Shown here one piece after another: positions 39,216 through 57,117 of a DNA stretch of 64,000 bases. The translations under genes were made by a program, and so were the position numbers. Source of the stretch: Minisyncoccota bacterium (lineage in GTDB: Bacteria; Patescibacteriota; Minisyncoccia; Phycocordibacterales; JAACPR01); contig JBAYWG010000001.1 of NCBI GenBank assembly GCA_041674225.1, positions 326,273-390,272 of the forward strand, in the 5' to 3' direction. The notes below the pieces were generated by a model. It worked only from the letters and a program-made list of their open reading frames with translations. It did not search any database and had not been told where the DNA came from. The first letter of the stretch is position 1, and each line of letters opens with the position of its first letter.

Positions 39216-39995
39216 ATGAAAGAACTTTTTAATGACCTGTTTTTTATACCCCTTTACAATGTCCTAGTTTTCTTTATTGATATTATTCCTGGAGGAGATG
39301 TGGGGTTTGCGGTGATTGCCCTTACACTTATGGTGAAGTTTATTCTCTTCCCTCTTTCTAAATCAGCTGTACGAACTTCTATTAAAAGTCGAGAAATTCA
39401 ACCAGAACTAGAAGAACTAAAAACAAAATACAAAGATAATAGAGAGGAAATGGGTCGAGCAATGCTTGATTTGTACAAGAAGCACCAAATAAACCCTTTC
39501 TCTGGGATACTTCTTATTTTTATTCAATTGCCAGTTATTTTGGCTCTTTATTGGGTGGTATATAAAGGTGGTCTGCCAGCCATAAACACAGACATCCTTT
39601 ATTCTTTTATTAGTGCCCCTTTAAACGTCGACATGACCTTTCTTGGGGTATTTCACATTGCAGAATCAAAGAACATAACACTGGCGCTTTTGGCTGCTGT
39701 GACTCAACACATTCAAGCGCGATTATCTTTCCCAAAACAAGAAAAGAAAGAGAAAAAAGAATCAGACAAACCAGATTTCAAGGAAGATTTAATGAGAGGT
39801 ATGCAAATCCAAATCAAATGGGTTCTTCCTGTGATGGTGTTTGCTTTTTCTTATGGACTAATCGCGGTGGTTTCTTTGTATTGGACTATCTCAAACCTTT
39901 TTGCCATTGGACAAGAGATTTATATTCGGGAAACAATCAAAAAACCTGCTCAAAAACTTAAGGATCAATTAGATCTCGACGCTCCAAAGAGTTAA
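39216..39995 (+). CDS. yidC: Membrane protein insertase YidC (short form)
   Basis: 259 aa, 5 TM helices, conserved YidC/Oxa1 region (ILFPLSKSAVRTSIKSREIQPELEELKTKY...NPFSGILLIFIQLPV). Confidence 0.8.
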   Translation: MKELFNDLFFIPLYNVLVFFIDIIPGGDVGFAVIALTLMVKFILFPLSKSAVRTSIKSREIQPELEELKTKYKDNREEMGRAMLDLYKKHQINPFSGILLIFIQLPVILALYWVVYKGGLPAINTDILYSFISAPLNVDMTFLGVFHIAESKNITLALLAAVTQHIQARLSFPKQEKKEKKESDKPDFKEDLMRGMQIQIKWVLPVMVFAFSYGLIAVVSLYWTISNLFAIGQEIYIRETIKKPAQKLKDQLDLDAPKS

Positions 39996-41270
39996 ATCTC
40001 TTTTATTTACAAATAGAATAAAGTCATCTTTTGGACTTGTTGCAAGTTTTATCATGTCAAAACTTTGCTCCACCTCTTCCTTGTCACCTAAAATCTGATC
40101 GTATTGTTGAGTGTCTAGATTTATTCTCCAAAGGTTGTCAGCTAGAGATGTTGTTCCTTGATACCATGATTCAGGTAGAGCAACTCTTGGCATTTGAGTT
40201 GGTCCTGCGCAGAAAAGTACATCTTGGCTTGTTTGAGCAAAAACACATTTCTCAGGAAGAGTTGTCACTCCAAGTCTTTTTGTCTCCCCTGTTTCTGTGT
40301 TTAGTGAAAATGTACTGAACTCATTTGTTCTTGATACAGAGTATATTAGCCATTTTTCGTTAGAGCTAATTATTGCTGTAAGCCCAGATAAGTCTCCAAG
40401 TAGTTTTTCAGAAGATCCGTTCTGTGCATTTACAAGATAAGCAAAACCAGACACTCGCGAGTCAGCTTTTGTTGTCATTAAAATATTATTTGTGTTTACT
40501 CGCGAAATTACCCAATCTTTTAAAGGTGATTCCATAACTATTTTTTTAGAAAGGTCGTCGAGTGTAGATGTTATCAATGTGCTTCCGCCTGTGTTTTTTG
40601 GTAATAAATAAGTTAGTCCCGCCGCACTTAGTTTAGCGTCGATAAGGTTTGGAGAAAGATAAGTTCCTTCAAGTGCAAATCCGTCTGCAACCGGAGCCCC
40701 TCCAGAAGGTGATGTTGCAGATTTTTCAGTTACTTTAGCAGAAAGAGTCTGTGTTGATTCTTGGTCTTCATTTAAAATTCTCAAAAGAACCCTCTCTCCA
40801 TCTCTTGAAAAATAAGAATCAACCACACGTGGAATAGTTGTGTTTGAAAGCCTTGTTTGTGTCAAAGAGTCTTCCCTTGCTTCATAGAGGTGTCCTGTAG
40901 ATCTTTCAAGATATCGAAATACCACAAATGTATCTCTCTCTGTTGTTTCTGAACCATCTTCAGAAATAATTGGCCGAGAAGTGTTACCTGTTCTCTCGAT
41001 TGCAACAGATCCAGCTACAGGCACTTGAGAAAGTTGTCGAAGTCTTGGAATTAGATTTCGATTTAGAGGGTTTGTTCTGTTTGGATCAGCTCCAATTTCA
41101 CCATTTTCATCCATACCTGGAATATCAACAGGAAAGAAATCTTCAGGACGATTAAAAGCCGAAGGGTTTGTTGGATCCACATCTTCTTTTATAAAAAACA
41201 ACCAAACGACAAAACCGATAAAAGCAAATATTAAGATAAAAATTGTCCAAGCAAGTATTTTTCTAATCAT
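39969..41270 (-). CDS. Hypothetical membrane-anchored exported protein (last gene of the T4SS-like cluster)
   Basis: 433 aa, N-terminal TM, no recognised domain; co-directional and tightly packed with the cluster. Confidence 0.4.
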   Translation of the reverse strand: MIRKILAWTIFILIFAFIGFVVWLFFIKEDVDPTNPSAFNRPEDFFPVDIPGMDENGEIGADPNRTNPLNRNLIPRLRQLSQVPVAGSVAIERTGNTSRPIISEDGSETTERDTFVVFRYLERSTGHLYEAREDSLTQTRLSNTTIPRVVDSYFSRDGERVLLRILNEDQESTQTLSAKVTEKSATSPSGGAPVADGFALEGTYLSPNLIDAKLSAAGLTYLLPKNTGGSTLITSTLDDLSKKIVMESPLKDWVISRVNTNNILMTTKADSRVSGFAYLVNAQNGSSEKLLGDLSGLTAIISSNEKWLIYSVSRTNEFSTFSLNTETGETKRLGVTTLPEKCVFAQTSQDVLFCAGPTQMPRVALPESWYQGTTSLADNLWRINLDTQQYDQILGDKEEVEQSFDMIKLATSPKDDFILFVNKRDLTLWSVEI

Positions 41271-41284
41271 GAAATTATTATAAC

Positions 41285-42043
41285 CTATCTTCTAATCGCA
41301 CCTAGTGTGTAATTCTCTTTTTCAACTAATACCAATTCGAAACTTCCTAGTGCGTTATTATCTAGGCCGAGCGCAATTCGCCCCGCCTCTGAAATCATTA
41401 AAGTGTTCTCAATTGGGTTTCTAGAATCAATCTCCACCACTACTTCTTTGTTGTTAGTTAAATTTTTAATTTTTAAATATTTTGTTGATAGGAATCTGTT
41501 TGCAACCCCAGTGTTTTCTACTATTGTAAAACCTGATTTCAGGGCTAATTCACTGGTTGGATACGCGGCATAGTATTCTGCACTCGGAATTCTTTCTCTT
41601 ATTGGAACTCCACTTACTTCCCCTACATCTCCATATCCAAATCTTCCGCTTGCATCACCTGGTGTGAAAATAATATTTTCTCCTGCTGAGTCTTGTGCAA
41701 AATAATATTCCCCAAATTCGTCTGAAGAAACAAACTCCAGCCCACCAATACTTTTAGGATTTCTAATCAAAGAGTATTCAACATTATTTTTTATTACAGT
41801 TTTAATATCTTTTGGCCCACCGTATACATTTATTTTCAATTTATTAAGACCAAAAGATTCAAAATACTCTGTTGGGCTCGAAGATGTGTCTTCTTTTACA
41901 AAATCAAAAGATTGCTCTGCTGGAATATTTTCTGCTGGAGAGTTTGATACTTCTGCTCTATCTTGAAATGTAAAAATAATTCCAAAGATTGCAAAAATTA
42001 TTATGATGACAGAAACCCCTATAATTATTTGTTGTTTATTCAT
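41285..42043 (-). CDS. Hypothetical bitopic protein (N-terminal TM plus about 220 aa extracytoplasmic domain; VirB8-like topology possible)
   Basis: Topology and size only. Confidence 0.35.
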   Translation of the reverse strand: MNKQQIIIGVSVIIIIFAIFGIIFTFQDRAEVSNSPAENIPAEQSFDFVKEDTSSSPTEYFESFGLNKLKINVYGGPKDIKTVIKNNVEYSLIRNPKSIGGLEFVSSDEFGEYYFAQDSAGENIIFTPGDASGRFGYGDVGEVSGVPIRERIPSAEYYAAYPTSELALKSGFTIVENTGVANRFLSTKYLKIKNLTNNKEVVVEIDSRNPIENTLMISEAGRIALGLDNNALGSFELVLVEKENYTLGAIRR

Positions 42044-42681
42044 TATCCAAAAATATCAATTATGAATTTTGTACCATCTCCTTTTGATGGAAGAATTGTT
42101 GAAATCATTAGAATTGAAACTAGTGCAATCAAAAGACCTCCTAGAGCTGCGTAGATTTTGTCTTTTCCTGCCCCTTTTGCAAAAACAGATTCGCTTCCCA
42201 TATATTGAATTCCGCCCACAATCATCATTATTACCGCCAAAACAATAGTTATCGTGATTGAAACTGTAAAAATAGTTTCAATCATTCCACCCAAACCTGT
42301 TCTTCCGTCAAAAAAAGTTTGATAACCGGGCGTAATTGGTTTGTATTTACTTCCACTTGCGCTATTTGAGACAGGGTTGGTGCTTACATTCCTTCCCGCA
42401 GACGCTCCAAGGTTTCCAATGTTTGAATTGTTGGTGCTTACATTCCTTCCCGCAGACGCTCCAAGGTTTCCAATGTTTGAATTGTTGGGATTTACTCCCG
42501 AGTCTTGTTGTGCTGCTTCCGTAGACAATCTATCTTCCAGACGTTTTGCAGCTTCCTCCATTTGATCACTAAGATTAAGATTTGGACGCTGAGCTTGAGC
42601 GACAGTTGTGTTTATTGAATATATAAATATAAATACAATTACAAATATAAAATATTTAGTTTTAGAAAGCAGTTGTTGCAT
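42043..42681 (-). CDS. Signal-peptide protein with tandem 19-aa repeat and C-terminal pair of TM helices (candidate VirB2/TrbC-like pilin)
   Basis: N-terminal signal peptide, repeat NNSNIGNLGASAGRNVSTN twice, C-terminal hydrophobic hairpin GGMIETIFTVSITITIVLAVIMMIVGG...LLIALVSILMISTIL. Confidence 0.35.
   Translation of the reverse strand: MQQLLSKTKYFIFVIVFIFIYSINTTVAQAQRPNLNLSDQMEEAAKRLEDRLSTEAAQQDSGVNPNNSNIGNLGASAGRNVSTNNSNIGNLGASAGRNVSTNPVSNSASGSKYKPITPGYQTFFDGRTGLGGMIETIFTVSITITIVLAVIMMIVGGIQYMGSESVFAKGAGKDKIYAALGGLLIALVSILMISTILPSKGDGTKFIIDIFG
42378..42491. repeat. Perfect 57-bp tandem duplication (2 copies) inside the pilin-like gene
   Basis: TGGTGCTTACATTCCTTCCCGCAGACGCTCCAAGGTTTCCAATGTTTGAATTGT occurs twice in tandem. 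Confidence 0.85.
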
Positions 42682-43693
42682 CGTTGTTTATTGTATCAAA
42701 TTGTTGATTTCCCAACACGTTAATTTTGAAAAGATTACTCCCTTCTTGAAGAATGTTTTGAACATGCTCTACTTTTACAGATAAGCTAGCCGTTCCACTT
42801 TTTTCTTTCCCAGGATTTAAATAATTGATAAAGCTTCCAACAGAGTCGTCCCCTACTGGTCGGCCGTTTTCAAACCAAGAATATTGTAAATTTCCCGAAC
42901 TTCTTTCTTGTGCGCTAAAAAAGTATGGAACAGCCGTTATTCCCACCTCCTCTCTGTCAAAATTAAATGTTCCAGTAAGTGCTTTTTCAAAAATACTTCC
43001 ATAAATTGGATTATTTTCATAAAGGATAACTTGAGGAATTGTTGGATTTATTAAAATTCTTTTCTTTGCTGTGAGATTTGAATTGATAGATTCAGCCACT
43101 ACAGAAACATAAAAAGGTCTTGAGATTAAAGATCCTTGAATTTTGATACTATCTCTCCCCGTTCCAGAAGCCGATTGAATTATTTCGTCGTCCTTTGACC
43201 AAGTGTAAGTAATTCTTTCTTTTGGAAGTAAAACCCCATTTTCTATAAAATTTGTCATCGCCGCTACTGTCAGAGATGATTGATGCGTAAAAAGTGATCG
43301 TCCTTTGTAAAATGGAGGAACATAAGTATCTGCTTCATAAACTAAATCTAAGTCTGTAGGGTTAATAGAAATCGAATCACGCAAAACCAAACCATTTTCT
43401 TTAGTTACATTCACAGAAATATTCGAGTTCCTTCCAGATTCAGGGGCTTGAAATTGGAAAAAAGTCTCTCCCACCCCGCTTTTTTTTACAACCCCATCTA
43501 CTAGCCAAGAAATATTGGTCTTTTTTAGGCTCGCATAATAACTGCTTTTTACTTGTGCACTGACCATTTCTTTTGGTGCTGGAATTTTAGGAATAATTTC
43601 AATAGAAACTGTTTCATCAAAAGCAGATGAAGTTGTTTGTGCAAAAAATTGAATTGGAGAAAATATTAGTGCAAAGAGTATTAAATATTTCAT
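42662..43693 (-). CDS. Secreted hypothetical protein (signal peptide)
   Basis: MKYLILFALIFSPIQFFAQ signal peptide; 343 aa. Confidence 0.4.
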   Translation of the reverse strand: MKYLILFALIFSPIQFFAQTTSSAFDETVSIEIIPKIPAPKEMVSAQVKSSYYASLKKTNISWLVDGVVKKSGVGETFFQFQAPESGRNSNISVNVTKENGLVLRDSISINPTDLDLVYEADTYVPPFYKGRSLFTHQSSLTVAAMTNFIENGVLLPKERITYTWSKDDEIIQSASGTGRDSIKIQGSLISRPFYVSVVAESINSNLTAKKRILINPTIPQVILYENNPIYGSIFEKALTGTFNFDREEVGITAVPYFFSAQERSSGNLQYSWFENGRPVGDDSVGSFINYLNPGKEKSGTASLSVKVEHVQNILQEGSNLFKINVLGNQQFDTINNDATTAF

Positions 43694-43754
43694 TATGATT
43701 ATTTTAACTCTTTTTAAAAAAGTTAACTACTTATTTATTAAATACAAAAAGGTT

Positions 43755-44327
43755 TTATTTCTTTGCCGCGGCTTTTTGGGCAGCTTTATCTGCTAGGGCG
43801 CTATCAAGATAGTTCCAAATAAATATAATTGTAAACAAAGGAAGCGCTTCTATAACAGGAATGCTCTCTGCGGCTATCGCAACAAGCCTCAACCATTTTG
43901 GAAGCTTCAGCGCCGCTTTAAAAGCTTCTTCTGCTTTAGCTGCTGCTTCAGCAAGCTTTCCGGCTTTCTGGAGTCTGTTAGAGCTTCCCATATATCGGGT
44001 TACTTTTCTAAAATCTGTAATTGTGCTCGCTTTATGAACATCTTCATATCCAAAGCTACTTTCCAGATTCCTTGCATTAGCTTGATGTTTTTTGTCTTTT
44101 TTATGTAGATAAATAAGGAGTAGCGGGGTAAAAATAAATGTAGTACAGATCCATACGATGGCAGCACCTGGTCCTGTGAAGTATCCTCCAATATCTATTA
44201 TGTCTACCAAGATACAAAGTATCAGCATAAGAATATCAAGACCAACGTCTTTTTTTGTGGTGGTCTCAGTCTGAGAAGTTTTTCCGTTTCCCTGTCTGGC
44301 TAGTCGGGTCACCTTTTCGTTTGCCAT
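43755..44327 (-). CDS. Membrane protein, hypothetical (T4SS-associated)
   Basis: 190 aa, several TM helices, Ala/Lys-rich C-terminus; immediately downstream of VirB4. Confidence 0.4.
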   Translation of the reverse strand: MANEKVTRLARQGNGKTSQTETTTKKDVGLDILMLILCILVDIIDIGGYFTGPGAAIVWICTTFIFTPLLLIYLHKKDKKHQANARNLESSFGYEDVHKASTITDFRKVTRYMGSSNRLQKAGKLAEAAAKAEEAFKAALKLPKWLRLVAIAAESIPVIEALPLFTIIFIWNYLDSALADKAAQKAAAKK

Positions 44328-44328
44328 G

Positions 44329-46209
44329 TTAGTTTACTGTATTACTTTTAACCTCTGTTGTTCGTCGAGCTAGGACGTCAGACGCTTTTGTTCCTGCAGA
44401 TTCTTTCAAATCAGATTTAGCTTTTTTGATTTGTAGAACCTGTGAAGGGTCGGATGTAATAATCTGATCCTCTGTATAAGAAGCAATAATTTTAATAGCA
44501 ACGTGTTTGATTCCGGCGAAGAAGATTCCCTCCCCCACATCAGATTCTAGAAGTAGATATTTTTCTTCTTCGGTTAGGTTGAAAGTTTGCTGAATCATAT
44601 CAATCGCTGTTGGAGATTGTTTTAACAAAAGTTGAATCGATGAGTTGGTAATAATTGGCATTCCATAAGGTGATCGCAAAAAGTCTTCCACGTCTTGTGT
44701 AATTGTAGACATTCCCAAATAATATTTTCGTCCTCGTTTTGCAAGACCAAACAAAAATGATGCAGTGTCTTCTGATTTCATCATCCACCATGCCTCATCA
44801 ATCACTAATAATCTTTTCTTTAATTGCTTTCTAACTGCATTCCAAATAAAGTGTGTCACCAAATACATCGCAACTGGTTTTAGTTCATCTTCCATGTCTC
44901 TCAAAGAAAACACGACGAATCTTTTATTTATATCTACGTTTGTTGGTCTATTGATGAAACCTGACCATGTTCCTCGAGTGTATTTAGAAAGTTTTTGTGC
45001 CAAAGATTCCCCTCCTTCCATTCCAGACAAAACATATTCGAAGTCTGAAAGAAGTGGCGGTTCAATATTTGAGAAATCACTTTCAGGAGTAATATCTTTC
45101 AATGCATAAGTTTCTGCAATTGCTCTATCCACGATAGCATCTTCTTCTGGAGTTAATCCTCCAAGCATCAGTCGGAAAAGCCCTACAAGGTTTACAATGT
45201 TTGAGCGCAAAATATCAGACGCAGCTTCATCATCTCTTGCTGGCGGAAGATCAAAAGGGTTAATGTGGTGATCTGATGTAAGAGAAATGTTGAAGTACCT
45301 TCCTCCTGTGGCTTCTGCCAAGAATTCGTATTCCCTTTCAGGGTCGATTACTAGCACATCTGTTTCAAACATTAGTGTTCTCAAAATTTCTAGTTTTGTA
45401 GCGTAAGATTTTCCAGAACCGGCTTTCGCAAACGTTACAGAGTTGTAGTTTTCTAGACTGAATCTATCAAACAAAATTAGTGAACTGTTGTGTCGGTTGA
45501 TTCCAAAAAGAATTCCTTTGTCTGATGTAAGGTCAAAAGAAATAAAAGGAAACAAACTTGAAAGAGGTGCAGAATTTAGTTTTGAATGAACTCCTAAAAT
45601 ATCTTGAGCAGTTGGAATAACAGTTTTAAAACCTTCCTCTTGTTGAAAAAGTGCAGGTTTTACATAAACTAATTTTGCTTCAAGAATTGATTTTATTTCT
45701 GATTCAAATTTATCTAGTTCATCTTTGCTTTCTGCATAAATAGAAAAATAGAGTCCAACATCAAATATTTTTTCTTGAGCTTGCTGCAAACTGTCTCTCA
45801 AAATTTCCAAATCTTGATAAGCTGTATCCAATATAGGATCTCGAACCAACCCTTTATTTTCTCGTGTGTGAATTTGTGATTGTACTTCCGCAACTTTCTT
45901 TTTGAATTGTCGCAAAATTGTAGCCGTATCTATCGGGTGAACATAAATAGAAATATCAAAAACTCTGTCCAAGTTAATCACCGGAGAAAACCAAGAGTCA
46001 GACAAAAATCTTGGATATGAAATCACAAAGAAACTTCTCACCATTTTGTCCCCCAGGTTTATTTCCCTAGGTGTTACTTTCAAAGCGCTCGGTGCAATCA
46101 CATCTTGCAACTCCAAAACTCCAGCTTCATAAATTTCTTGTGGCAGAAAAGAAGTAATCTGTGTTGGTTCTTTTTGTTTTTTTCCTTTTATAAAATCAAG
46201 TATTCCCAT
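44329..46209 (-). CDS. Type IV secretion system ATPase VirB4/TrbE/TraC family (C-terminal ATPase portion)
   Basis: Walker A FAKAGSGKSYA; Walker B LLVIDEAWWMM (DEAW is characteristic of VirB4); C-terminal RGRKYYLGMSTITQDVEDF. Confidence 0.8.
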   Translation of the reverse strand: MGILDFIKGKKQKEPTQITSFLPQEIYEAGVLELQDVIAPSALKVTPREINLGDKMVRSFFVISYPRFLSDSWFSPVINLDRVFDISIYVHPIDTATILRQFKKKVAEVQSQIHTRENKGLVRDPILDTAYQDLEILRDSLQQAQEKIFDVGLYFSIYAESKDELDKFESEIKSILEAKLVYVKPALFQQEEGFKTVIPTAQDILGVHSKLNSAPLSSLFPFISFDLTSDKGILFGINRHNSSLILFDRFSLENYNSVTFAKAGSGKSYATKLEILRTLMFETDVLVIDPEREYEFLAEATGGRYFNISLTSDHHINPFDLPPARDDEAASDILRSNIVNLVGLFRLMLGGLTPEEDAIVDRAIAETYALKDITPESDFSNIEPPLLSDFEYVLSGMEGGESLAQKLSKYTRGTWSGFINRPTNVDINKRFVVFSLRDMEDELKPVAMYLVTHFIWNAVRKQLKKRLLVIDEAWWMMKSEDTASFLFGLAKRGRKYYLGMSTITQDVEDFLRSPYGMPIITNSSIQLLLKQSPTAIDMIQQTFNLTEEEKYLLLESDVGEGIFFAGIKHVAIKIIASYTEDQIITSDPSQVLQIKKAKSDLKESAGTKASDVLARRTTEVKSNTVN

Positions 46210-46213
46210 GTTT

Positions 46214-46852
46214 TTAATTTACCGGAATCGGTTTTTCTACATCTCCTGGATTGAACAGTCTATAAAAAACTTCAATCGCTTCTTCTGTTCCTAATTGTAC
46301 AGCTCTTACTCCTGCTCTTGTAATACCTTGTTGTACGACCGCAATCCTTTGTTCTATTTGTGTGCTGTGTTCTTCAAAATCCTCTTTCTTCCCCGCTGCC
46401 ACTGTGGCGGCACTTTGTTTTTTGAAAAAACCTTTGCTCTTGTTGGAGTTGATGTTGATTGTTGCAGGTGTATAAGGCACAACGATGTAAAAAGTTTTGG
46501 TCATAATATTTGTTCTGTCTGTGAAAGCCTTGATGAATTCAATGTATTCCTTTACTTGGATACGCATCAAATCGTTTATTTGTTCTTTTTCTCGCACCTC
46601 CAATGTTGCGATGTATGGTCGGATGTCTAGCCTTCGTGATTGAATAAAAATCTGTACGCTGAAATTTAGAGAGTTTAGAAATTGTTGAAATTGGAAAATA
46701 ATAGAATCTTGCTCATCTTGAGACTTAAGTGCGAAGTTTACAGAAGATGTCATCAATAGAGCACGCATCGAACCATCTTTCAAAACTAAAATTCCATTAC
46801 GAACTTCTTTAATCGGAACAATTGTTTGTGTTGATTTTTTACTTTCCGCCAT
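46214..46852 (-). CDS. VirB4 N-terminal domain-like protein (split from the ATPase ORF)
   Basis: IVPIKEVRNGILVLKDGSMRALLMTSSVNFALKSQDEQ...IQSRRLDIRPY resembles the VirB4/TraC N-terminal domain. The stop is 4 nt before the ATG of the ATPase ORF, in a different frame. Confidence 0.5.
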   Translation of the reverse strand: MAESKKSTQTIVPIKEVRNGILVLKDGSMRALLMTSSVNFALKSQDEQDSIIFQFQQFLNSLNFSVQIFIQSRRLDIRPYIATLEVREKEQINDLMRIQVKEYIEFIKAFTDRTNIMTKTFYIVVPYTPATININSNKSKGFFKKQSAATVAAGKKEDFEEHSTQIEQRIAVVQQGITRAGVRAVQLGTEEAIEVFYRLFNPGDVEKPIPVN

Positions 46853-46869
46853 AATATTTTTTTATTATA

Positions 46870-47298
46870 TCACTGCTTCGGAGTAATATCGTCTAAAGTT
46901 TCTAGAGTTTCGTGAATATCTAATCCCCAAGATAAATCTTTTAGTTTGCTGTTTGAAAGTTTTGGCACATCAAGTGATGCTCTTTGAATAATTTCTGCAG
47001 CTTGTTTCTCCGGAGTTCGCTCTCTTTTTTTCCAAAGATAAAGTTTTGGTGCAAATAAATATTTAAAGAAATGTTCGATTGCTATCACTAGTGGTCTGTC
47101 GTTTACTTTCCAAAAAGCTAATCCAAAAAACAAAGCCACAAAAGGTGCTCCAAATAAAATTGCTAAAAATCTCGGAAAGGTTGTCCAAAAAACAAAGCCG
47201 ATAGCTATCCCCGCTCCAGCATAAAGGAATTGTTTTAATGTAAATGGTCCGAATATTTTATCTTCGATTTCTAAGAATTGTGGAACTTGATATTTCAT
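46870..47298 (-). CDS. VirB3/PrgI-like small two-TM membrane protein
   Basis: 142 aa, two adjacent TM helices (FLYAGAGIAIGFVFWT...LAILFGAPFVALFFGLAFW), positioned directly upstream of the VirB4 N-domain. Confidence 0.45.
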   Translation of the reverse strand: MKYQVPQFLEIEDKIFGPFTLKQFLYAGAGIAIGFVFWTTFPRFLAILFGAPFVALFFGLAFWKVNDRPLVIAIEHFFKYLFAPKLYLWKKRERTPEKQAAEIIQRASLDVPKLSNSKLKDLSWGLDIHETLETLDDITPKQ

Positions 47299-47307
47299 AT
47301 TTATATT

Positions 47308-48120
47308 CTACGCTACTGGTTCTCTGTATGGATCTACTTTTGCAGGTTGAGTTGTGTTTGGTGGTGTGATTTTTTCTTCAAATACTGATGTATCAACCGA
47401 TTTTGGCATTGGAATGAAGATTGGCTTTGGTGGAGTAACCGGTTTAATTGTGACTGGCTCAGGTTTTATTTCTGCAACAACTGGTGGAACTATAAGTGTT
47501 ATTGGGGTCTTTGGAATTTCTGGCGCCACAGGAACAGTTGGAATAGTTGGAATTTTTAAGTCTTCTGGAATAGGTTCTTTGTAAGGATCTTCCTTTTTTA
47601 CTTCTACGACAGACGGCACAGGTGGTGTAACTGGAGAAACTGAAGCATCTTTAGTTTCGTTTTTATTTTCAAAATAATCAGAAGGAATTTTGTTTTTTAG
47701 AGAAGGTTTTGAATTTATTTTTACCGCACTCTCGATATCTTGAGCAACTCTGTTTAGTTGGCTGTTGGCCTCTCTGTCTACATCCGCGACTGTATCTGCT
47801 GTCTCTGTAATAGAAATCAGTTTCCGGCGGATGTCTCCAAAGATTTCTCGTTCAACTTCGTTTGAAATTGTATAAGCTTGATCGTCACTTACTCCTGCAT
47901 ACTCTTTTGCGTTTCGTACAAAAGTTTCTGGAGTTTCTATTCCTAACATTGTGATGAAAACTAGATTTTCAATGGCTGCTCCTTGATCAACATGAAGATT
48001 GTTATTTTTTACAACTCTACGAATTTTTTCTTGCCAATTAGAACCAGTGATAGTATCTCGAATTACCGGTGGTAATGTTTTGAATTGTTCTTTTATGATG
48101 CTTTGTGTGTCGTTATCCAT
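47308..48120 (-). CDS. Pro/Val/Thr-rich hypothetical protein (no TM)
   Basis: C-terminal PxxP-rich low-complexity region (TPPVPSVVEV...IPTIPTVPVAPEIPKTPITL...). Confidence 0.4.
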   Translation of the reverse strand: MDNDTQSIIKEQFKTLPPVIRDTITGSNWQEKIRRVVKNNNLHVDQGAAIENLVFITMLGIETPETFVRNAKEYAGVSDDQAYTISNEVEREIFGDIRRKLISITETADTVADVDREANSQLNRVAQDIESAVKINSKPSLKNKIPSDYFENKNETKDASVSPVTPPVPSVVEVKKEDPYKEPIPEDLKIPTIPTVPVAPEIPKTPITLIVPPVVAEIKPEPVTIKPVTPPKPIFIPMPKSVDTSVFEEKITPPNTTQPAKVDPYREPVA

Positions 48121-48123
48121 ATT

Positions 48124-50214
48124 TTATTTTCCCTCTTTATCTCCTCCTTTGCTATCAGATTTATTATCCGGCTTCTTGTCATCCCCTTCCAATAGTTTTT
48201 TTAGATCCTTCAATTGTTTTTGTTCTGTAGACATTGCTTTCATAATTTCCCCAGCTGCCTTCTTGTCAATTGACTTTGCACTTGGCAACCAAGTGGTTGG
48301 CATAACTAAGTCTATTTTGGTGCGATTTCCTTCTAAATTATCCGCGTGCTTCATTCTTTGTGATTTCATTGCCACAACTTTTTCAAGTGCTTTGTATTCA
48401 TCAGTGTCTCTTACTCTAGTTTCATGTGTGCTTAAATTTTGTGTGGCATTAGATAGGAGTGTGTTAATGCGCTTCATTCGTTCTGAATCTCCTGAAGATT
48501 TTGCAGCTTCATAATCAATATTTAGTTCATTGATTGTCTTTTTAGCCTCCACAACATAATCATCAGAATTTATAGATGCTTCCATGTCTTTCTTAGCTTG
48601 TTTTTGTGCCTCTTTTTGATCATCTGTAAAGCCGTCGCTTAGATTTTTTGAGCGGTCAACTCTTAGTTTTTGAGATCTTTCTTGTTGACCTATGTAACCA
48701 TCTTTTGTTGGAGCAAGTGTTCCTTTAAAGTCTCCTCCAACTCCTGTGGCAGAAGCTACACCTTTAAAGACTTTGGATTCTCTAAGATCAAAGCCAGATT
48801 TAGCAACCCCTTTCATTCCACTTAGTAGTGTCATCCCCGCTCGTGTTGTAGCAAAATTACTTTTTGCAAATTTGTCTGCACCGGCACTAGCTGCCCAACC
48901 AACTGTATTTCTACCAGCAAAACCAATTGTTCCAAGAATTGTCCCACCGACAGCCGATGAAACGCCACCGCTGATTTTGCTAACAGCCGCACTTCCTCCT
49001 GATGATACTTTTTGAGCTACGATTAGTGCGGCAACAAAAAGTCCTATTATAATTCCATAAATCATTGCTACTCCACCAACCACATTAACCACTGATGCAA
49101 AGGTAGAAGTACCTTCTACTGTATTGTTGAGTGCATTCTCTGTTATCTTTGCCACATTTTCTGGCACCTTTTCGGCTATTTTTACCGCAACATATATAAA
49201 CAAAAGAAATGCCGGTAGAAAAAAAGAATGACCCACCAAAGATCTCCACCATTCTTCGGATATTTTTTTTGTGTTTGGCAAAACCATACTTGCAAAAGCA
49301 ATCGGAGATACAATCAAAAGAAGAATAAGAGCAACTAATCTTCCTATTATGATACTTAAAGCTGAAAACAAAACTGCAGCTAAAACTAATGACGTTATAC
49401 CACTCAGTGTGGAAGCCACTGCCACGACTAACATTTTTTGGAAAAAAGTACCTATTGCCCATCCTGTTTCAAATGCTGTTTTAGATCCAGGTAATTTTTT
49501 ATACCAAGGCATTTCAGAGTATGTTTTCTCAAGAAGCTTTTCTTGGTTTTTGTCGAATTGAGAGTTCATTATTGACCCGAACGCCGCCACTTGGGTTTTT
49601 TCATAGAAATAAGAACCAAGCTTTAGACTGTCACCATTGTCTCCAGAAGAATTTTTATCAGTCTCTTCTTTTATTTGGTCATAAATTGTTAAAGCCATTT
49701 CGTTAGAAATATCGATAACCACTGCTCCAAAGAAAAAACTAAAGTTCATTAAAAGTGCTGCCAAGATAGCTTTGCTTAAAAGTTTCTTGGCTTCATATCC
49801 ACTGAACTGAAGTATTGTGCTGATTGCAATAAAAATAAGCACAAAAATAATTCCAATATTGGCAATATTTCTAAAAATTTTCCAAGAGTCTTGGACAATG
49901 TTACTACCTGTGACAAAGTCACTCATACCATACACAGCCAGATCTATTGCTAAATCGAAACCATAAGAGGCAATCCCCAAGACAAGTGCTGCTATGGATG
50001 AAAAAAAGTAAGCAATAACTGCAAGTACAGGAGAGGCTAGCTGCAATCCTTCCGCGGGAAGATCGACAAGAGGTTTCTCTGTGAGGTCTTTTTCTTCTGG
50101 TGTTTCGGACGCCGCCGGTGCATCTTGTGCAAAGACAAAATCAGACGGGTTAAGAAATATTGTGAATAAAAAAAGTAATACAAAAAAACTTTTTTTATTA
50201 AACAAAAAACTCAT
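48124..50214 (-). CDS. VirB6/TrbL-like polytopic membrane protein with charged C-terminal tail
   Basis: 696 aa, signal-like N-terminus, at least 8 TM helices over the first 450 aa, then a hydrophilic Lys/Asp-rich tail; architecture and position match VirB6/TrbL. Confidence 0.5.
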   Translation of the reverse strand: MSFLFNKKSFFVLLFLFTIFLNPSDFVFAQDAPAASETPEEKDLTEKPLVDLPAEGLQLASPVLAVIAYFFSSIAALVLGIASYGFDLAIDLAVYGMSDFVTGSNIVQDSWKIFRNIANIGIIFVLIFIAISTILQFSGYEAKKLLSKAILAALLMNFSFFFGAVVIDISNEMALTIYDQIKEETDKNSSGDNGDSLKLGSYFYEKTQVAAFGSIMNSQFDKNQEKLLEKTYSEMPWYKKLPGSKTAFETGWAIGTFFQKMLVVAVASTLSGITSLVLAAVLFSALSIIIGRLVALILLLIVSPIAFASMVLPNTKKISEEWWRSLVGHSFFLPAFLLFIYVAVKIAEKVPENVAKITENALNNTVEGTSTFASVVNVVGGVAMIYGIIIGLFVAALIVAQKVSSGGSAAVSKISGGVSSAVGGTILGTIGFAGRNTVGWAASAGADKFAKSNFATTRAGMTLLSGMKGVAKSGFDLRESKVFKGVASATGVGGDFKGTLAPTKDGYIGQQERSQKLRVDRSKNLSDGFTDDQKEAQKQAKKDMEASINSDDYVVEAKKTINELNIDYEAAKSSGDSERMKRINTLLSNATQNLSTHETRVRDTDEYKALEKVVAMKSQRMKHADNLEGNRTKIDLVMPTTWLPSAKSIDKKAAGEIMKAMSTEQKQLKDLKKLLEGDDKKPDNKSDSKGGDKEGK

Positions 50215-50267
50215 ATGAAAATTATAACATTAGGATTGAAATTTAAAACAAAACTATTCAGTTTTGT

Positions 50268-51884
50268 TTATGAAATATCCTCACCTAGTTCCTTCGTCAT
50301 TTGATAAACTTTTGAAAAATACTCTGCGATAAGTTTTCCATCTTCCCCTGCTTCGTCTAGTCCTACAAATCTACTTATCGCAAGCATCATGTGTTCTAGT
50401 GCTTGTGGTAAATAATGTGTTGCAGGGATTACAATATCACCTGTTTCTGGATCAGTGATGTTTAAATGTCCTTGTGCTATTTCTGTTTCATAAGCGAGCT
50501 CTCGAGTGTTTGAAGTTATTATTTCATCAACCTCCAATGCTATTTCAAAGTGTTTAAATAGAACACTTCCTCTAGCATCTGATTGAGTTAGAAAGTTTTC
50601 TATTTTATTTAAATCATATTTTTCTTCACTAGATTCTTCGGCTGAACATTGCTGATTTGACTCTCGATTGATTAAGGATTGGCTATTTCTGACTTTAACC
50701 AAAGATTCAGCAATATTCTTTTCTTCTTCCGGTAAACATGACTTTGCTTCTTGAAGTTTTTCAATAGCTTGTTCAAATGCTTTATCTTGAATGTTTATGA
50801 AGTGTTTTTTGTAATTAACTACAAAAGTAGGCTTATCATCATTTCCTGTGTATAGGAAATTTGTTGATTTCTCAATCATGATTTTGATAGAAACATCGAT
50901 ATTGCAGTTAGAAACAGCATCAAGCGAAGGGGTTTTTTCTTTTTCATCTACCCTACCAATTTCTTTTTCTGTAAGTGCTGCAATGTTTTTCTCTATGTTT
51001 TGGATAGGTGTAACTATTGGTTTAGGATCGGTTGGTACTAATTGTTCTTTGGGTTCTTCTGGCTTCTTTTGTTGAAGCTCCTCACGCATTTTTTCTGTCT
51101 TTTTATCTTGTTCTTCACACTTTTGTTCATCCTTTTGTTTTTGAGTTGCATCTTCATCACCCTCTGTTACATCCTCTGTGGTAAATGTTCCAGGGTCGTC
51201 TTCTTCTTCTCCGTCGGGGTTAGAGTCAGGGTTATTTGGATCGTTTGGATTATTTCCACCTCCACCACCTCCAGGATTGTTTGGATCAGTAGGATTATTT
51301 GGATTATTTGGATTGTTTCCAGTGTTACCACCAGTGTTTCCTCCGGTATTACCACCGGTATTTCCTCCTGTGTTACCACCAGTGTTACCACCAGTGTTTC
51401 CTCCGGTATTACCACCGGTATTTCCTCCTGTGTTACCACCAGTATTACCACCGGTATTTCCTCCTGTGTTACCACCAGTATTACCACCACCTCCAGGAAT
51501 ATTTGGAATTTCCAGAACAGTTACAGTACAATCGTCTGAAAGAGTTATTCCCCCTGTTGTGATTGTTACTGTAGCCGTTTTTATACCAATGTTTGAATAC
51601 CTTGCTGTTGTTGTCGCTCTGTTCACGTCTTGTATAGAATTACCTTCCCATTCATAAGAAATTGTAGAACTTGCATTTGAAACAATTGCTCTCCAAGTTA
51701 CAGTTGAATTCTTCAAAACAATATTTTGGTGAGGTTCACATTTAACACTTAATGGCGCTGGAGCTGTTTGTGCTTGTGTTTGTCGAGAAAAAGCCTGAAA
51801 CGAGAAAAAGGCAATAATCAAAACACCTAAAACACCGCTTAAAATTATTTTCAGAACTTTTTTTAAATTAAATTGATTTGTCAT
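50268..51884 (-). CDS. Secreted or surface protein with Ig/PKD-like N-terminal region, about 19 GGNT repeats, an Asn/Pro-rich and acidic linker, and a C-terminal globular domain
   Basis: N-terminal TM/signal; beta-rich Thr/Ser segment (NSTVTWRAIVSNASSTISYEWEGNS...TVTITTGGITL); (GGNT)n; NPNNPNNPTDPNNPGGGGGG. Confidence 0.5.
   Translation of the reverse strand: MTNQFNLKKVLKIILSGVLGVLIIAFFSFQAFSRQTQAQTAPAPLSVKCEPHQNIVLKNSTVTWRAIVSNASSTISYEWEGNSIQDVNRATTTARYSNIGIKTATVTITTGGITLSDDCTVTVLEIPNIPGGGGNTGGNTGGNTGGNTGGNTGGNTGGNTGGNTGGNTGGNTGGNTGGNTGGNTGGNTGNNPNNPNNPTDPNNPGGGGGGNNPNDPNNPDSNPDGEEEDDPGTFTTEDVTEGDEDATQKQKDEQKCEEQDKKTEKMREELQQKKPEEPKEQLVPTDPKPIVTPIQNIEKNIAALTEKEIGRVDEKEKTPSLDAVSNCNIDVSIKIMIEKSTNFLYTGNDDKPTFVVNYKKHFINIQDKAFEQAIEKLQEAKSCLPEEEKNIAESLVKVRNSQSLINRESNQQCSAEESSEEKYDLNKIENFLTQSDARGSVLFKHFEIALEVDEIITSNTRELAYETEIAQGHLNITDPETGDIVIPATHYLPQALEHMMLAISRFVGLDEAGEDGKLIAEYFSKVYQMTKELGEDIS
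51318..51490. repeat. 12-nt tandem repeat array (about 14 units; higher-order 60-nt units 51341..51400 and 51401..51460) encoding (GGNT)n
   Basis: GTGTTACCACCA / GTATTTCCTCCG-type units directly visible in the sequence. Confidence 0.85.
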
Positions 51885-51887
51885 GTT

Positions 51888-52694
51888 TTAAAAATTTCCC
51901 CAGAGAATTCCTGATTCATCTTCTGAAAAAATTATATCATTTAATTTAAAGTAGTATGAAATATTTGATAAAATTTCCGGTTGAATTTCTCTGATTTGAT
52001 TATATTGATTTAAAAACAAAGAAAGCAAGATGGGATCCTCATCTGTTTGTGCAATTTTAACTAACAAGATATTAATCTTATATAAATTGTTTATATACTT
52101 TAAATGGTCATCAGAAATACTTCTTGGGATGCTAATTTTTGACAATTCCTCGGCCTCTTCCCCAAAAACATTAGAGTATTTAATAATAAATTCCATATCA
52201 TCTTCAGCATCTACAGTTCTTAGTTTGTTTGTGTATTTTGTAATTATTTTTGCAAACTGGTTTCCGTATTGTTTAGCGTCATCTTTTCTATAATCAGGAA
52301 AAGTTGAAAGTTGATAAATAGAGTATTTGTTTGGGATTGTAGTAGCGGCAACAGTTTCTTCAGCTAGTTTTGTTGTTAGTTTATCTAAGTTTTCTGGCGT
52401 ATTTAGTGACCGGTTTTTTAAATCTTCATAATTTCCAAGAAGTCCTAGTAGCACAGATTCTGAAAAAGTTTCTGGCGGCGTGTAGTCAATTTTATCTGGA
52501 TTTTTCTCTGCTTCCTCTAATAGAAATTGTTCCAAAGTTTTTACAGGTGAATTATCCATAACCTCAGTACCGTCTACCTCACCGAATACTTTTTGCAGAG
52601 ATCTTTTTGCCATTACATCTTTTCCAATCAAAGCAATCATCAAGGATACTGTGATGATTATTACTCCTATTACTTTTCTACTTGGCTTTTGCAT
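51888..52694 (-). CDS. Hypothetical membrane-anchored protein (first gene of the cluster)
   Basis: 268 aa, N-terminal TM. Confidence 0.4.
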   Translation of the reverse strand: MQKPSRKVIGVIIITVSLMIALIGKDVMAKRSLQKVFGEVDGTEVMDNSPVKTLEQFLLEEAEKNPDKIDYTPPETFSESVLLGLLGNYEDLKNRSLNTPENLDKLTTKLAEETVAATTIPNKYSIYQLSTFPDYRKDDAKQYGNQFAKIITKYTNKLRTVDAEDDMEFIIKYSNVFGEEAEELSKISIPRSISDDHLKYINNLYKINILLVKIAQTDEDPILLSLFLNQYNQIREIQPEILSNISYYFKLNDIIFSEDESGILWGNF

Positions 52695-52740
52695 TGATGA
52701 AATTATAACAGATTGCGTGATATAATTTTTTTATAAAGGT

Positions 52741-53193
52741 ATGAATTTGTTTAAAAATAATATAAATAAAATATTATTAATCACTGTGGCGCTTGGTTTT
52801 TTATTCTTGCAAGAGTCGCTGAGATTCACAAATGTTGAAGATGCCGTGTCTAATGGTTTAAACACAGCGGCACTCAGTCAGACGTCTTGGATGAATCAGA
52901 AGCGTCACCAAGGTGAGCCTTTTGGCGGTTATATACTCACTAGAATAGAATGTGATTGTGAAGGAAATTACATTGTTTTAATTAATGATTATGTTAGCCG
53001 GTCTAATCTTTGGCTTAAAGTTGAAAAGGGTAAATCAACTATTTATGAATACGGGAAGGAACTTACTCCTAATAAATATACCCTAGGTACTTATGATAAA
53101 GGTGCTACATGCAAGATGCAGGTTCGGGATTGTAAGCCTGCTAAAGTTGATGGAGTAATAAACAGCGGTCCGGGTGCTGGAGTTTCTAAATAA
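52741..53193 (+). CDS. Secreted hypothetical protein
   Basis: Signal peptide-like N-terminus, 150 aa. Confidence 0.4.
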   Translation: MNLFKNNINKILLITVALGFLFLQESLRFTNVEDAVSNGLNTAALSQTSWMNQKRHQGEPFGGYILTRIECDCEGNYIVLINDYVSRSNLWLKVEKGKSTIYEYGKELTPNKYTLGTYDKGATCKMQVRDCKPAKVDGVINSGPGAGVSK

Positions 53194-53194
53194 T

Positions 53195-53992
53195 TTAATT
53201 TCTCGCTAAACAAACCCAATCCTCTACTTTTAATTCCTCCGAACGAGTTTTTGGATCGATTCCACATTCTTCGAATTTACTTTTCTCCACCACTCCCTCT
53301 AAGTTTCCACCGAGTTGTTTTCTTTTGTGGGCGAATCCGGCTTTCATCACTTCGAAAAATCGTTTTTCATTTGGTCCGTTTTTTGCGTTTTTAAAAATTT
53401 TATTTGAAATATCTGCAATGTGAATAATTGCTGAATCAACTTTTGGAGCAGGTACAAAAGCCCCTTTTGGAACGGTTGCGATATATTTTGGCTTTCCAAA
53501 AACTTTGATTGAAATAGAAAGGATACTTTCTTTTTTGTCTTTAGAAATAATTCTTTCGGCAACTTCTTTTTGTACTAAAAATGTAATTGATTGTGGAGGA
53601 TTTTCTAGTGTTAGAAATTTTTCAATTAAAGCTCCGGTGATGTAGTACGGAATGTTGGCAACAATTTTGTAATCTTTTTTAAAATTTTTATTTTCACTAG
53701 GATTAAATTCCAGTGCATCTCTTCTAATAATTTCCAGTTGGCCGCTTTCACAAAAATCCTGCAAAACAATTTCTAATTCTCCAGCCAAAACTTCATCTTT
53801 TTCAATCGCAATCACGCGTGCACCTGTCTCTAAAAGTTTTTTAGTTAAAGCTCCTCTTCCTGGTCCGATTTCTAAAACTGTTTCCCCTTCCCTTAATTCA
53901 GAAGCAGTTATCATTTGGTTCAGAGCTTTTTCTGATTTTAAAAAGTTTTGCCCTAAAGATTTTTTTGCTCGCTGACTAAAATTTTCTGACAT
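53195..53992 (-). CDS. rsmA: 16S rRNA (adenine1518-N6/adenine1519-N6)-dimethyltransferase RsmA/KsgA
   Basis: LGQNFL motif, VLEIGPGRGALT SAM-binding motif. Confidence 0.85.
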   Translation of the reverse strand: MSENFSQRAKKSLGQNFLKSEKALNQMITASELREGETVLEIGPGRGALTKKLLETGARVIAIEKDEVLAGELEIVLQDFCESGQLEIIRRDALEFNPSENKNFKKDYKIVANIPYYITGALIEKFLTLENPPQSITFLVQKEVAERIISKDKKESILSISIKVFGKPKYIATVPKGAFVPAPKVDSAIIHIADISNKIFKNAKNGPNEKRFFEVMKAGFAHKRKQLGGNLEGVVEKSKFEECGIDPKTRSEELKVEDWVCLARN

Positions 53993-56112: not shown

Positions 56113-57117
56113 GTGAAAAAGTCTTTTGTCATGGCTGCGCTTTTAGTTCTCCCAATCCTTGCTAATGCTGGAGTTTTTTCTTTCTTGGGTAGCTCTGATA
56201 ATAAAAATCTGAATGAGCCAAATGTTTCTTTAAATTCTCAAACTATCCCGGTGCTTCAGGCTGCTACAAACAATGACCCTAACCCAGCCAAAGGAGGTGG
56301 AGATATTATGGTGGTGGATGATAAAGCCATTATGGCAGTTTCGACTATTACCGGTGACCCTGTAGAAATCTATCGACCAAAATCTGATCAGATTAGTGTG
56401 TATGTGGTGCGTGAAGGTGACACTCTTTCTCAAATTGCCAACATGTTCCATGTGACTTCAAATACTATTCGTTGGGCCAATGATTTAGAGGGAGAAATCC
56501 AACCAGGACAACAATTGGTGATTTTGCCGGTGACAGGAGTGAAACATAAGGTGAAGAGTGGTGGAACAGTTGCTGATTTGGCTGAACTATACAAAGCCGA
56601 CGCAAGAGAAATTGCTTTGTTTAACGGTATTTCTGTAAATACAAAACTTGAAGCTGGTATGGAAATTCTTGTACCTAACGGAGAACTTCATGTAGAAGAA
56701 AAGAAAAAGACAAAAACTATTGCAAAAAGCAGTTCAGGAAAATCAACAGCCTCGTCATCTGCTTCAAAAGGTTCAAGTGTATTCAAAAACCCAGTTCCTG
56801 GTGCTGTAAAGACACAAGGAATTCACGGATACAACGGTGTAGACTTCGGTGCTCCAATCGGTACATCTATTTATGCAGCTGCAGCAGGACAAGTTATTAT
56901 TAGTAAGAGTAGTGGATGGAATGGTGGATACGGAAATTATGTTGTTATCAAACACGACAATGGCTCACAAACTCTTTATGCTCACGCAAGTACTGTAAAT
57001 GTTTCTTCAGGTGAATGGGTTTCTCAAGGTGATTTAATCGCTACTGTTGGAAATACAGGAAAATCAACAGGACCACACCTTCACTTTGAAGTTCGAGGAG
57101 CGACAAACCCTTTCTAG
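56113..57117 (+). CDS. Peptidoglycan endopeptidase: two LysM domains plus C-terminal M23 (LytM) peptidase
   Basis: LysM (YVVREGDTLSQIANMF; HKVKSGGTVADLAELY); M23 motifs GYNGVDFGAP, HLHFEV. Confidence 0.85.
   Translation: MKKSFVMAALLVLPILANAGVFSFLGSSDNKNLNEPNVSLNSQTIPVLQAATNNDPNPAKGGGDIMVVDDKAIMAVSTITGDPVEIYRPKSDQISVYVVREGDTLSQIANMFHVTSNTIRWANDLEGEIQPGQQLVILPVTGVKHKVKSGGTVADLAELYKADAREIALFNGISVNTKLEAGMEILVPNGELHVEEKKKTKTIAKSSSGKSTASSSASKGSSVFKNPVPGAVKTQGIHGYNGVDFGAPIGTSIYAAAAGQVIISKSSGWNGGYGNYVVIKHDNGSQTLYAHASTVNVSSGEWVSQGDLIATVGNTGKSTGPHLHFEVRGATNPF

Follow-up and report, generated by a model that had tools for sequence, protein, structure and literature searches.

An exported protein with a Gly-Gly-Asn-Thr repeat linker as a probable accessory subunit of a chromosomal type IV secretion system in a Patescibacterium

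Introduction

What is the role of a putative surface protein that carries a long tetrapeptide repeat and is encoded within a secretion gene cluster, and is the DNA array encoding the repeat a site of frequent length variation? The question is raised by a 538-residue open reading frame (ORF) in a 64,000-nt stretch of contig JBAYWG010000001.1 (assembly GCA_041674225.1, a Minisyncoccota bacterium), the whole of which is called the window below. A first-pass annotation made from the DNA sequence described the product of this ORF (here the target protein) as an exported protein associated with a type IV secretion system (T4SS), having an immunoglobulin (Ig)/PKD-like region, about 19 GGNT repeats encoded by a 12-nt array, an Asn/Pro-rich and acidic linker and a distinct C-terminal domain. 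The array was taken to be a hotspot of length variation, which was considered consistent with a variable adhesin, pilus-tip protein or spacer stalk.

Patescibacteria are known to have chromosomal T4SSs that resemble mating-pair formation class FATA (MPF-FATA), are relaxase-poor and lie near ksgA (PMC12102498; review PMC12857230), as set out by Quinonero-Coronel et al. 2025 (PMC12102498) and by Wang et al. 2023, which that paper cites. In the only Patescibacterium examined so far in this respect, epibiotic life is reported to require the T4SS, and these systems may build pili (PMC12102498, PMC12857230). The reading that we favor, with a probability of about 0.6, is that the target protein is a Sec-exported accessory subunit of such a chromosomal monoderm-type (MPF-FATA-like) T4SS in a Patescibacterium of the class Paceibacteria, composed of a docking C-terminal domain, a PKD/Ig-like head and a disordered GGNT tether between the two.

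Results

The target ORF is a constrained gene of a T4SS cluster

The target ORF is a real gene under purifying selection because it has a syntenic ortholog of 69% identity (P0001, from locus L001) and low ratios of nonsynonymous to synonymous substitution rates (dN/dS). In comparison with L001 dN/dS was 0.16 over the whole ORF and 0.11-0.19 in the folded parts (0.185 for the PKD-like domain and 0.113 for the C-terminal domain, hereafter the C-domain), with 0.23 for the alignable linker and, as a comparison value, 0.055 for the neighboring KsgA. P0001 was the only true ortholog given by a whole-protein homology search, the output of which was dominated by unrelated envelope proteins having GGNT-like low complexity. 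No noncoding RNA was found to overlap the target region. A 10-bp A/U-rich hairpin followed by UUUUAAAUUU (50215..50267, minus strand) lies directly 3' of the target stop codon and ahead of the VirB6-like gene, and was rejected as a significant structure by its folding energy relative to shuffled sequences (z = -1.2).

The target gene is part of a co-oriented block with tiny intergenic gaps that consists of a 268-aa gene, the target, a 696-aa membrane protein, a 270-aa gene, PrgI/VirB3, a TrsD-like ORF and the VirB4 ATPase. More conserved exported proteins are encoded beyond VirB4, a VirB2-like pilin candidate among them (Table 1). The VirB4 ATPase scored 369 bits with the NCBIfam conju_CD1110 model (NF045971; cut-off 325) and the 212-aa ORF gave TrsD and VirB4 N-terminal matches. 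Given a VirB4 of the CD1110 family and PrgI/VirB3 in one operon, we assign the cluster to the chromosomal MPF-FATA-type (monoderm) T4SSs. The PrgI plus VirB4 cluster, together with a Sec-type signal on the target protein, upholds the earlier description of a T4SS-associated exported protein. No relaxase was found within the stretches examined.

A VirB4 scan of GTDB species genomes gave 80 loci with VirB4 proteins that are 76-94% identical. The informatively named records among these are Parcubacteria/Paceibacteria, the others being labelled uncultured Candidatus Saccharibacteria, Patescibacteria or 'bacterium'; the two closest genomes are putatively, by their record label, 'uncultured Candidatus Saccharibacteria'. 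Synteny with window positions 39969..53992 was seen in about 80 metagenome-assembled genomes of Paceibacteria (L003-L082), the gene order being ksgA, g150, g268, target, VirB6-like, g270, PrgI, TrsD, VirB4, g190, g343, pilin-like, g252 and g433. The target was recognizable by tblastn in just a few of these genomes. In L003 the identities to the window proteins were 94% for VirB4, 85% for PrgI, 76% for KsgA and 35% for the target, which is the fastest-diverging gene of the cluster.

A PKD/Ig-like head, a disordered linker and a helical C-domain

The Sec signal of the target protein is probably cleaved between TQA and the Q that follows, and orthologs likewise have an NAQ/AQA-type (A-x-A/Q-like) motif after the hydrophobic core. 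The target protein has no LPXTG motif, lipobox or C-terminal transmembrane (TM) segment; its C-terminus reads ...YQMTKELGEDIS. The structure was modelled with AlphaFold2 (AF2) from a 13-sequence alignment (A5), since a two-sequence input gave a predicted local distance difference test score (pLDDT) of only 33.

In the model residues 41-125 form seven strands with pLDDT values of 83-92. Foldseek searches of the PDB with this domain ranked PKD domains at the top (1l0q, E = 3e-5; the PKD domain of the collagenase ColG, 2y72, TMt 0.75 and root-mean-square deviation 2.6 A), and the BFVD matches were viral Ig-like, Hoc, BIG2 and PKD proteins. The N-domain profile also matched the Ig domain of a phage decoration protein (5lxk, E = 1.3e-3). 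The Pfam PKD models (PF00801 and PF18911) failed to match the window protein even at E<=10, and the L004 ortholog scored 13.9 bits, below the Pfam PKD cut-off of 23.5. Because the predicted structure matches PKD domains while Pfam gives none, the PKD/Ig-like label of the first-pass annotation is valid as a fold, not as Pfam family membership.

Residues 131-240 were predicted to be unstructured, with block means of pLDDT 26-32, and residues 294-537 to be helical with moderate confidence (pLDDT 55-77). An Asn/Pro-rich and acidic linker and a distinct C-terminal domain, both noted earlier, are present in the sequence and in the AF2 model. Between them lies a charged helix, and three residues of this region, C256, V283 and P284, are unchanged across all sequences of the A5 alignment.

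The C-domain defines an unannotated family at a fixed position

Only 12 clusters were matched by the C-domain in an exhaustive HMMER search that covered 1.84 billion cluster representatives. These have a common architecture: a signal, usually a Cys-bounded PKD-like domain, a linker rich in G/N/Q/S/T/P, a segment with an invariant Cys (the charged helix of the window protein), a 'MVPTNPIPIVDPI' motif and the C-domain. In most related loci the ORF that directly precedes the VirB6-like gene was matched (E 1e-28 to 1e-4) by a hidden Markov model (HMM) made of subfamily sequences alone, and jackhmmer iteration gave full-length matches (E 1e-42 to 1e-81). Of the 56 loci in which the upstream flank reached 6.5 kb or more, 54 had a C-domain ORF, flanked by the g268-like and VirB6-like genes and 3.5-5.5 kb upstream of virB4. 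In an hhalign control, a profile of 50 distant members that lacked the window's clade found the window C-domain with a probability of 84% (E = 8e-6).

The C-domain directly follows the signal peptide in most members (47 of 55), and in these proteins variable extensions are found C-terminal to it. A PKD domain plus linker ahead of the C-domain is restricted to the window's clade; L006 has a different Ig-like domain there. The PKD head and linker are additions specific to this clade, and the C-domain is the module that defines the family.

Other modules were seen on inspection of family members. The N-module of L006 (L006:3321-5282) resembles by eye an IPT/TIG-type Ig domain, and the positional orthologs L017, L021 and L077 carry homopolymeric T/S runs (T7S17 in L017) or stretches rich in G/S/T/N. 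Positional orthologs often have a Cys and then an amphipathic helix ahead of the C-domain.

No match for the family was found in Pfam, NCBIfam, PHROGs or PDB sequence profiles, and tblastn of the C-domain against plasmids and phages gave none. Pattern scans with the C-domain over GTDB genomes and JGI metagenomes found no relatives, and hhalign comparisons with pCF10 PrgC to PcfA and with R388 VirB1, B2, B5, B6 and B8 gave probabilities of <1% each. The family is unannotated and near-universal at a fixed position in Paceibacteria T4SS loci.

The GGNT array is a block-duplicated linker that relatives replace with other repeats

Tandem Repeats Finder reported a 12-nt array at 51319..51489 (14.2 copies) and a higher-order 60-nt period (2.7 copies, 94% identity, score 286). 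Since the rest of the window holds a single other tandem repeat with a score of at least 80, the GGNT array is far beyond chance. The array of the first-pass annotation is therefore real; its count of about 19 repeats is not, as there are exactly 14 GGNT units, and 19 is reached only by adding the flanking GG, GNNP and NNP/NDP motifs. The 60-nt higher-order duplicates were seen as first described, 51319-51378 being an exact tandem copy of 51379-51438. The units follow one another as ABCABCDEFBCDEF, in which (ABC)x2 and (BCDEF)x2 overlap, a pattern of 36-nt and 60-nt block duplications. In this lineage the array is probably of recent origin, built up as blocks of three units (36 nt) and five units (60 nt) were duplicated in frame by replication slippage or unequal recombination. 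The remainder of the linker (51156..51320) also has short repeats, of 9 and 18 nt.

The four variable sites of the 12-nt unit are all third codon positions and every unit encodes GGNT, an outcome with a chance of 1 in 495 were the four variable sites placed at random among the twelve. A peptide kept perfectly over 14 units despite 23% DNA divergence between units could be taken as the mark of an ordered structure, such as a glycine-rich helix bundle or beta-solenoid stalk having a specific structural role. However, the low pLDDT of 26-32 extends throughout the repeat, and a period of four misfits the known Gly-rich folds (period 3 for polyproline II and collagen). Moreover, orthologs have unrelated GS, GQ or NP low-complexity sequences in place of GGNT, and GGNT-like runs serve as inter-domain linkers in many unrelated envelope proteins (penicillin-binding proteins, LytR, PASTA kinases, NlpC/P60 proteins and autotransporters). 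We consider an ordered stalk very improbable. The same low pLDDT and the lack of sequence conservation among orthologs agree with the spacer role originally suggested. Taken alone, the GGNT repeat is an ordinary low-complexity linker, which would matter only if length heterogeneity were seen at the level of reads.

The stretch between the domains measures 110-158 aa in 10 relatives with a PKD domain, and in each it contains a low-complexity run rich in G/N/Q/S/T/P. The repeat type differs: GS/GT in P0001, GGQQ in P0122, GGTNPFTGGQQ in P0123, GGNNP in P0125 and P0131, and N/S runs in P0129. No comparable DNA array was found in L001 or L003. Because the relatives differ in repeat type and have stretches of similar length, the GGNT array seems to be this lineage's current version of a tether of which the length is kept and the sequence is not. 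Over evolutionary time each lineage would swap its linker for a different low-complexity repeat, with the inter-domain distance remaining about constant.

Length variation of the array within the lineage

Linker turnover over long evolutionary times is true, given that the nearest ortholog (69%) has Gly-Ser/Gly-Thr in place of GGNT, and to this extent the proposal of a length-variation hotspot holds. In its full form the proposal is that the array behaves as a contingency-type locus, in which frequent in-frame gain or loss of 12-, 36- or 60-nt blocks gives subpopulations with different tether lengths or epitopes, and so tunes reach or evades recognition by hosts or phages. The exact 60-nt tandem duplicate and the clear block structure of the array favor such a locus, as does the entirely different linker of the nearest ortholog. 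On/off phase variation is a different matter and was rejected, since the 12-nt unit and the 36- and 60-nt blocks are all multiples of three and stay in frame.

The strain comparison did not extend the proposal beyond long-term turnover. The window is 100% identical to the ENA contig k141_245379 over 21.6 kb, including the GGNT array, except for one 54-nt unit in the pilin-like gene. There the window has a perfect 54-nt tandem duplication (42376..42488; 18 aa, NNSNIGNLGASAGRNVST x2) of which k141_245379 has one copy fewer. This is the sole other strong tandem repeat in the window and lies in the same cluster, and a difference of one unit between otherwise identical assemblies argues that repeat instability occurs in this genome. 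The GGNT array itself is the same in both assemblies, and no other array alleles or length variants were found in the searched collections. Synonymous differences between the units also lower the perfect homology that slippage needs.

A third sequence, the Logan contig SRR6484325_41078 (L084/L086) from another sample, matches the window with 100% identity as far as the second GGNT unit, where it ends (about window position 51465). A k-mer assembler breaking within the array could be counted in favor of a hotspot; however, any repeat longer than k would break a contig likewise. The break is small-k assembler behavior at repeats and is uninformative on copy number. A frequently varying array is thus unproven, and we think it unlikely. 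As an aside, the GGNT repeat breaks small-k assemblies, so short contigs systematically lack the 3' part of this gene.

The same data bear on a further reading, in which assembly collapsed or expanded the repeat, so that the copy number or even some of the array is an artefact. The DNA comes from metagenome assemblies, the Logan contig ends within the array and the other tandem repeat differs between the two assemblies, all of which would fit an artefact. Against it, the two assemblies agree exactly on the GGNT array, the frame is unbroken and the flanking sequences match those of the ortholog. In addition, an array of 168 nt with internal synonymous differences can be spanned unambiguously by k=141 contigs. 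An artefact is very unlikely.

A proposed mode of action

In the accessory subunit reading the helical C-domain (aa 282-538) most likely docks the protein on the extracytoplasmic face of the T4SS. Docking is proposed because the protein is encoded directly upstream of the VirB6-like gene in nearly all related loci. The (GGNT)14 repeat plus the NNP/G6/acidic stretch would be a disordered tether of about 120 residues that provides length and flexibility rather than a specific fold, and the PKD/Ig-like head probably touches a surface ligand weakly, either on the host cell or in the bacterium's own envelope. The protein may also be a pilus-tip protein or adhesin, as first suggested.

Several points weigh against this picture. 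The link of the C-domain to the T4SS is one of gene position only. If the N-terminal signal were an uncleaved anchor the geometry would be reversed, with the PKD domain near the membrane. AF2 disorder calls on repeats with shallow alignments are weak evidence. Finally, the constancy of GGNT despite four DNA differences hints that in this lineage the peptide itself, and not any flexible sequence, is under selection.

Neighboring genes of the cluster

The features of the target ORF and its cluster are given in Table 1. The two-ORF arrangement of VirB4 is common to all related loci. The ATPase is extremely conserved (76-94% identity across the class), its exported neighbors being only 20-50% identical. 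The 270-aa protein, whose gene separates the VirB6-like gene from PrgI, is conserved in its N-terminal half and ends in a long tail rich in Pro, Val and Lys (PVTPPVPSVVEVKKEDPYKEPIPEDLKIPTIPTVPVAPEIPKTP...), which is another low-complexity region in the cluster. The genes g268, g343 and g433 are conserved cluster members without a family assignment. A protein with LysM and Peptidase_M23 domains is encoded near the cluster and is a candidate for the role of VirB1 in cell-wall remodelling, in line with the discussion of Patescibacteria in PMC12102498.

Table 1 Features of the target ORF and of the surrounding T4SS cluster (window coordinates).
Feature	Coordinates	Strand	Evidence
Target ORF, 538 aa, probable exported accessory protein of the T4SS cluster	50268..51884	-	ORF listing; syntenic ortholog P0001/L001
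Sec signal, aa 1-40: K-rich n-region, hydrophobic core aa 11-30	51765..51884	-	Hydropathy scan; AF2 helix 5-35
PKD/Ig-like beta-sandwich, aa 41-126, bounded by Cys49 and Cys119	51507..51764	-	AF2; Foldseek
(GGNT)x14, aa 133-188: 14 units of 12 nt, six synonymous DNA variants	51321..51488	-	Translation; Tandem Repeats Finder
Rest of predicted disordered linker, aa 189-243: NNP/NDP motifs, G6 run, then acidic stretch	51156..51320	-	Sequence; pLDDT 26-42
Charged helix with invariant Cys256, aa 244-281, then conserved VPT(D/N)P.PIV.PI motif	51042..51155	-	AF2 helix 244-271
Conserved helical C-terminal domain, aa 282-538	50271..51041	-	AF2; profile searches
Co-oriented upstream gene, 268 aa, N-terminal TM segment, 3 nt from target start, syntenic in relatives	51888..52694	-	
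Polytopic membrane protein, 696 aa, downstream, VirB6-like	48124..50214	-	Position and hydrophobicity only; no HMM match
270-aa protein	47308..48120	-	
PrgI/VirB3-like protein	46870..47298	-	Pfam PF12666, 35.2 bits (cut-off 27)
Split VirB4: TrsD-like N-terminal ORF 46214..46852 (212 aa) and ATPase ORF 44329..46209 (626 aa)	44329..46852	-	
VirB2-like pilin candidate, signal peptide, C-terminal two-helix hydrophobic hairpin	42043..42681	-	Pfam T4SS_pilin, only E=5
LysM plus Peptidase_M23 protein	56113..57117	+	

Discussion

The window cluster resembles the T4SSs described for Patescibacteria in having a CD1110-type VirB4, a TrsD-like ORF, PrgI/VirB3, a VirB6-like protein and a VirB2-like pilin candidate, and in being chromosomal and near ksgA. 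The position of the VirB6-like gene also agrees with the report that VirB6 genes lie close to virB4 in Patescibacteria (PMC12102498). The difference is the target family: the two published accounts (PMC12102498, PMC12857230) list no component that matches it and report that no adhesins were detected.

Among T4SSs of monoderm bacteria, the adhesins PrgB/Asc10 and PrgC of pCF10 are like the target in being exported surface proteins that are encoded by the T4SS upstream of the channel genes and have Ig-like domains and repetitive or low-complexity spacers (PMC12857230). The target differs in having neither an LPXTG motif nor a polymer-adhesin domain (Pfam/NCBIfam), and hhalign against PrgC gave a probability of 0.1%. 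Moreover, the conserved module of the target is a helical domain, which is not reported in those adhesins.

A helical domain calls to mind the VirB5/TraC/TrwJ minor pilins of Gram-negative systems, which are found at the pilus tip and dock on VirB6 as a pentamer, their fold being a three-helix bundle with a globular appendage. These proteins are Sec-exported, mainly helical, 230-300 aa in length and encoded directly upstream of virB6 in systems with a VirB2-like pilin, all of which is true or predicted of the target C-domain and its locus. At the level of sequence and profile there is no similarity (none with Pfam, none with PDB profiles and 0.8% in hhalign against TrwJ). The helical domain could be the functional VirB5 counterpart in pilus-bearing monoderm T4SSs of Patescibacteria, as a secreted subunit located at the VirB2-like pilus tip or on a platform of the VirB6-like protein, with Paceibacteria lineages fusing different Ig-like heads to it via rapidly replaced disordered tethers. 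We hold this to be decidedly unlikely; if true, the target protein would be the host-recognition determinant of the epibiont's essential T4SS.

CagY, the VirB10 protein of the Helicobacter pylori Cag T4SS, has in-frame DNA repeats at which recombination changes protein length; the variation is experimentally documented and alters T4SS function. The target resembles CagY in being a T4SS-linked protein with in-frame DNA repeats. It differs in that no variation was seen in its array and in that its repeat is a short low-complexity linker.

The N-domain is predicted to have the fold of the Ig-like/PKD decoration domains of phage Hoc, phage T5 pb10 and the ColG/ColH collagenases. Such domains typically mediate weak surface adhesion. 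The N-domain of the target differs from them in falling below the Pfam PKD thresholds and in being bounded by a Cys pair; it is a Patescibacteria-specific subtype that is found in tandem in P0004.

For host recognition by Patescibacteria T4SSs neither an adhesin nor a VirB5-like subunit has been described (PMC12102498, PMC12857230). We propose the target protein as a concrete candidate for a surface-exposed, host-facing part of the T4SS because of its near-universal fixed position, its fastest divergence within the cluster and its lineage-specific Ig-like domains on low-complexity tethers. As an unannotated fast-evolving family, it is of moderate interest for research on candidate phyla radiation (CPR) bacteria and on T4SSs.

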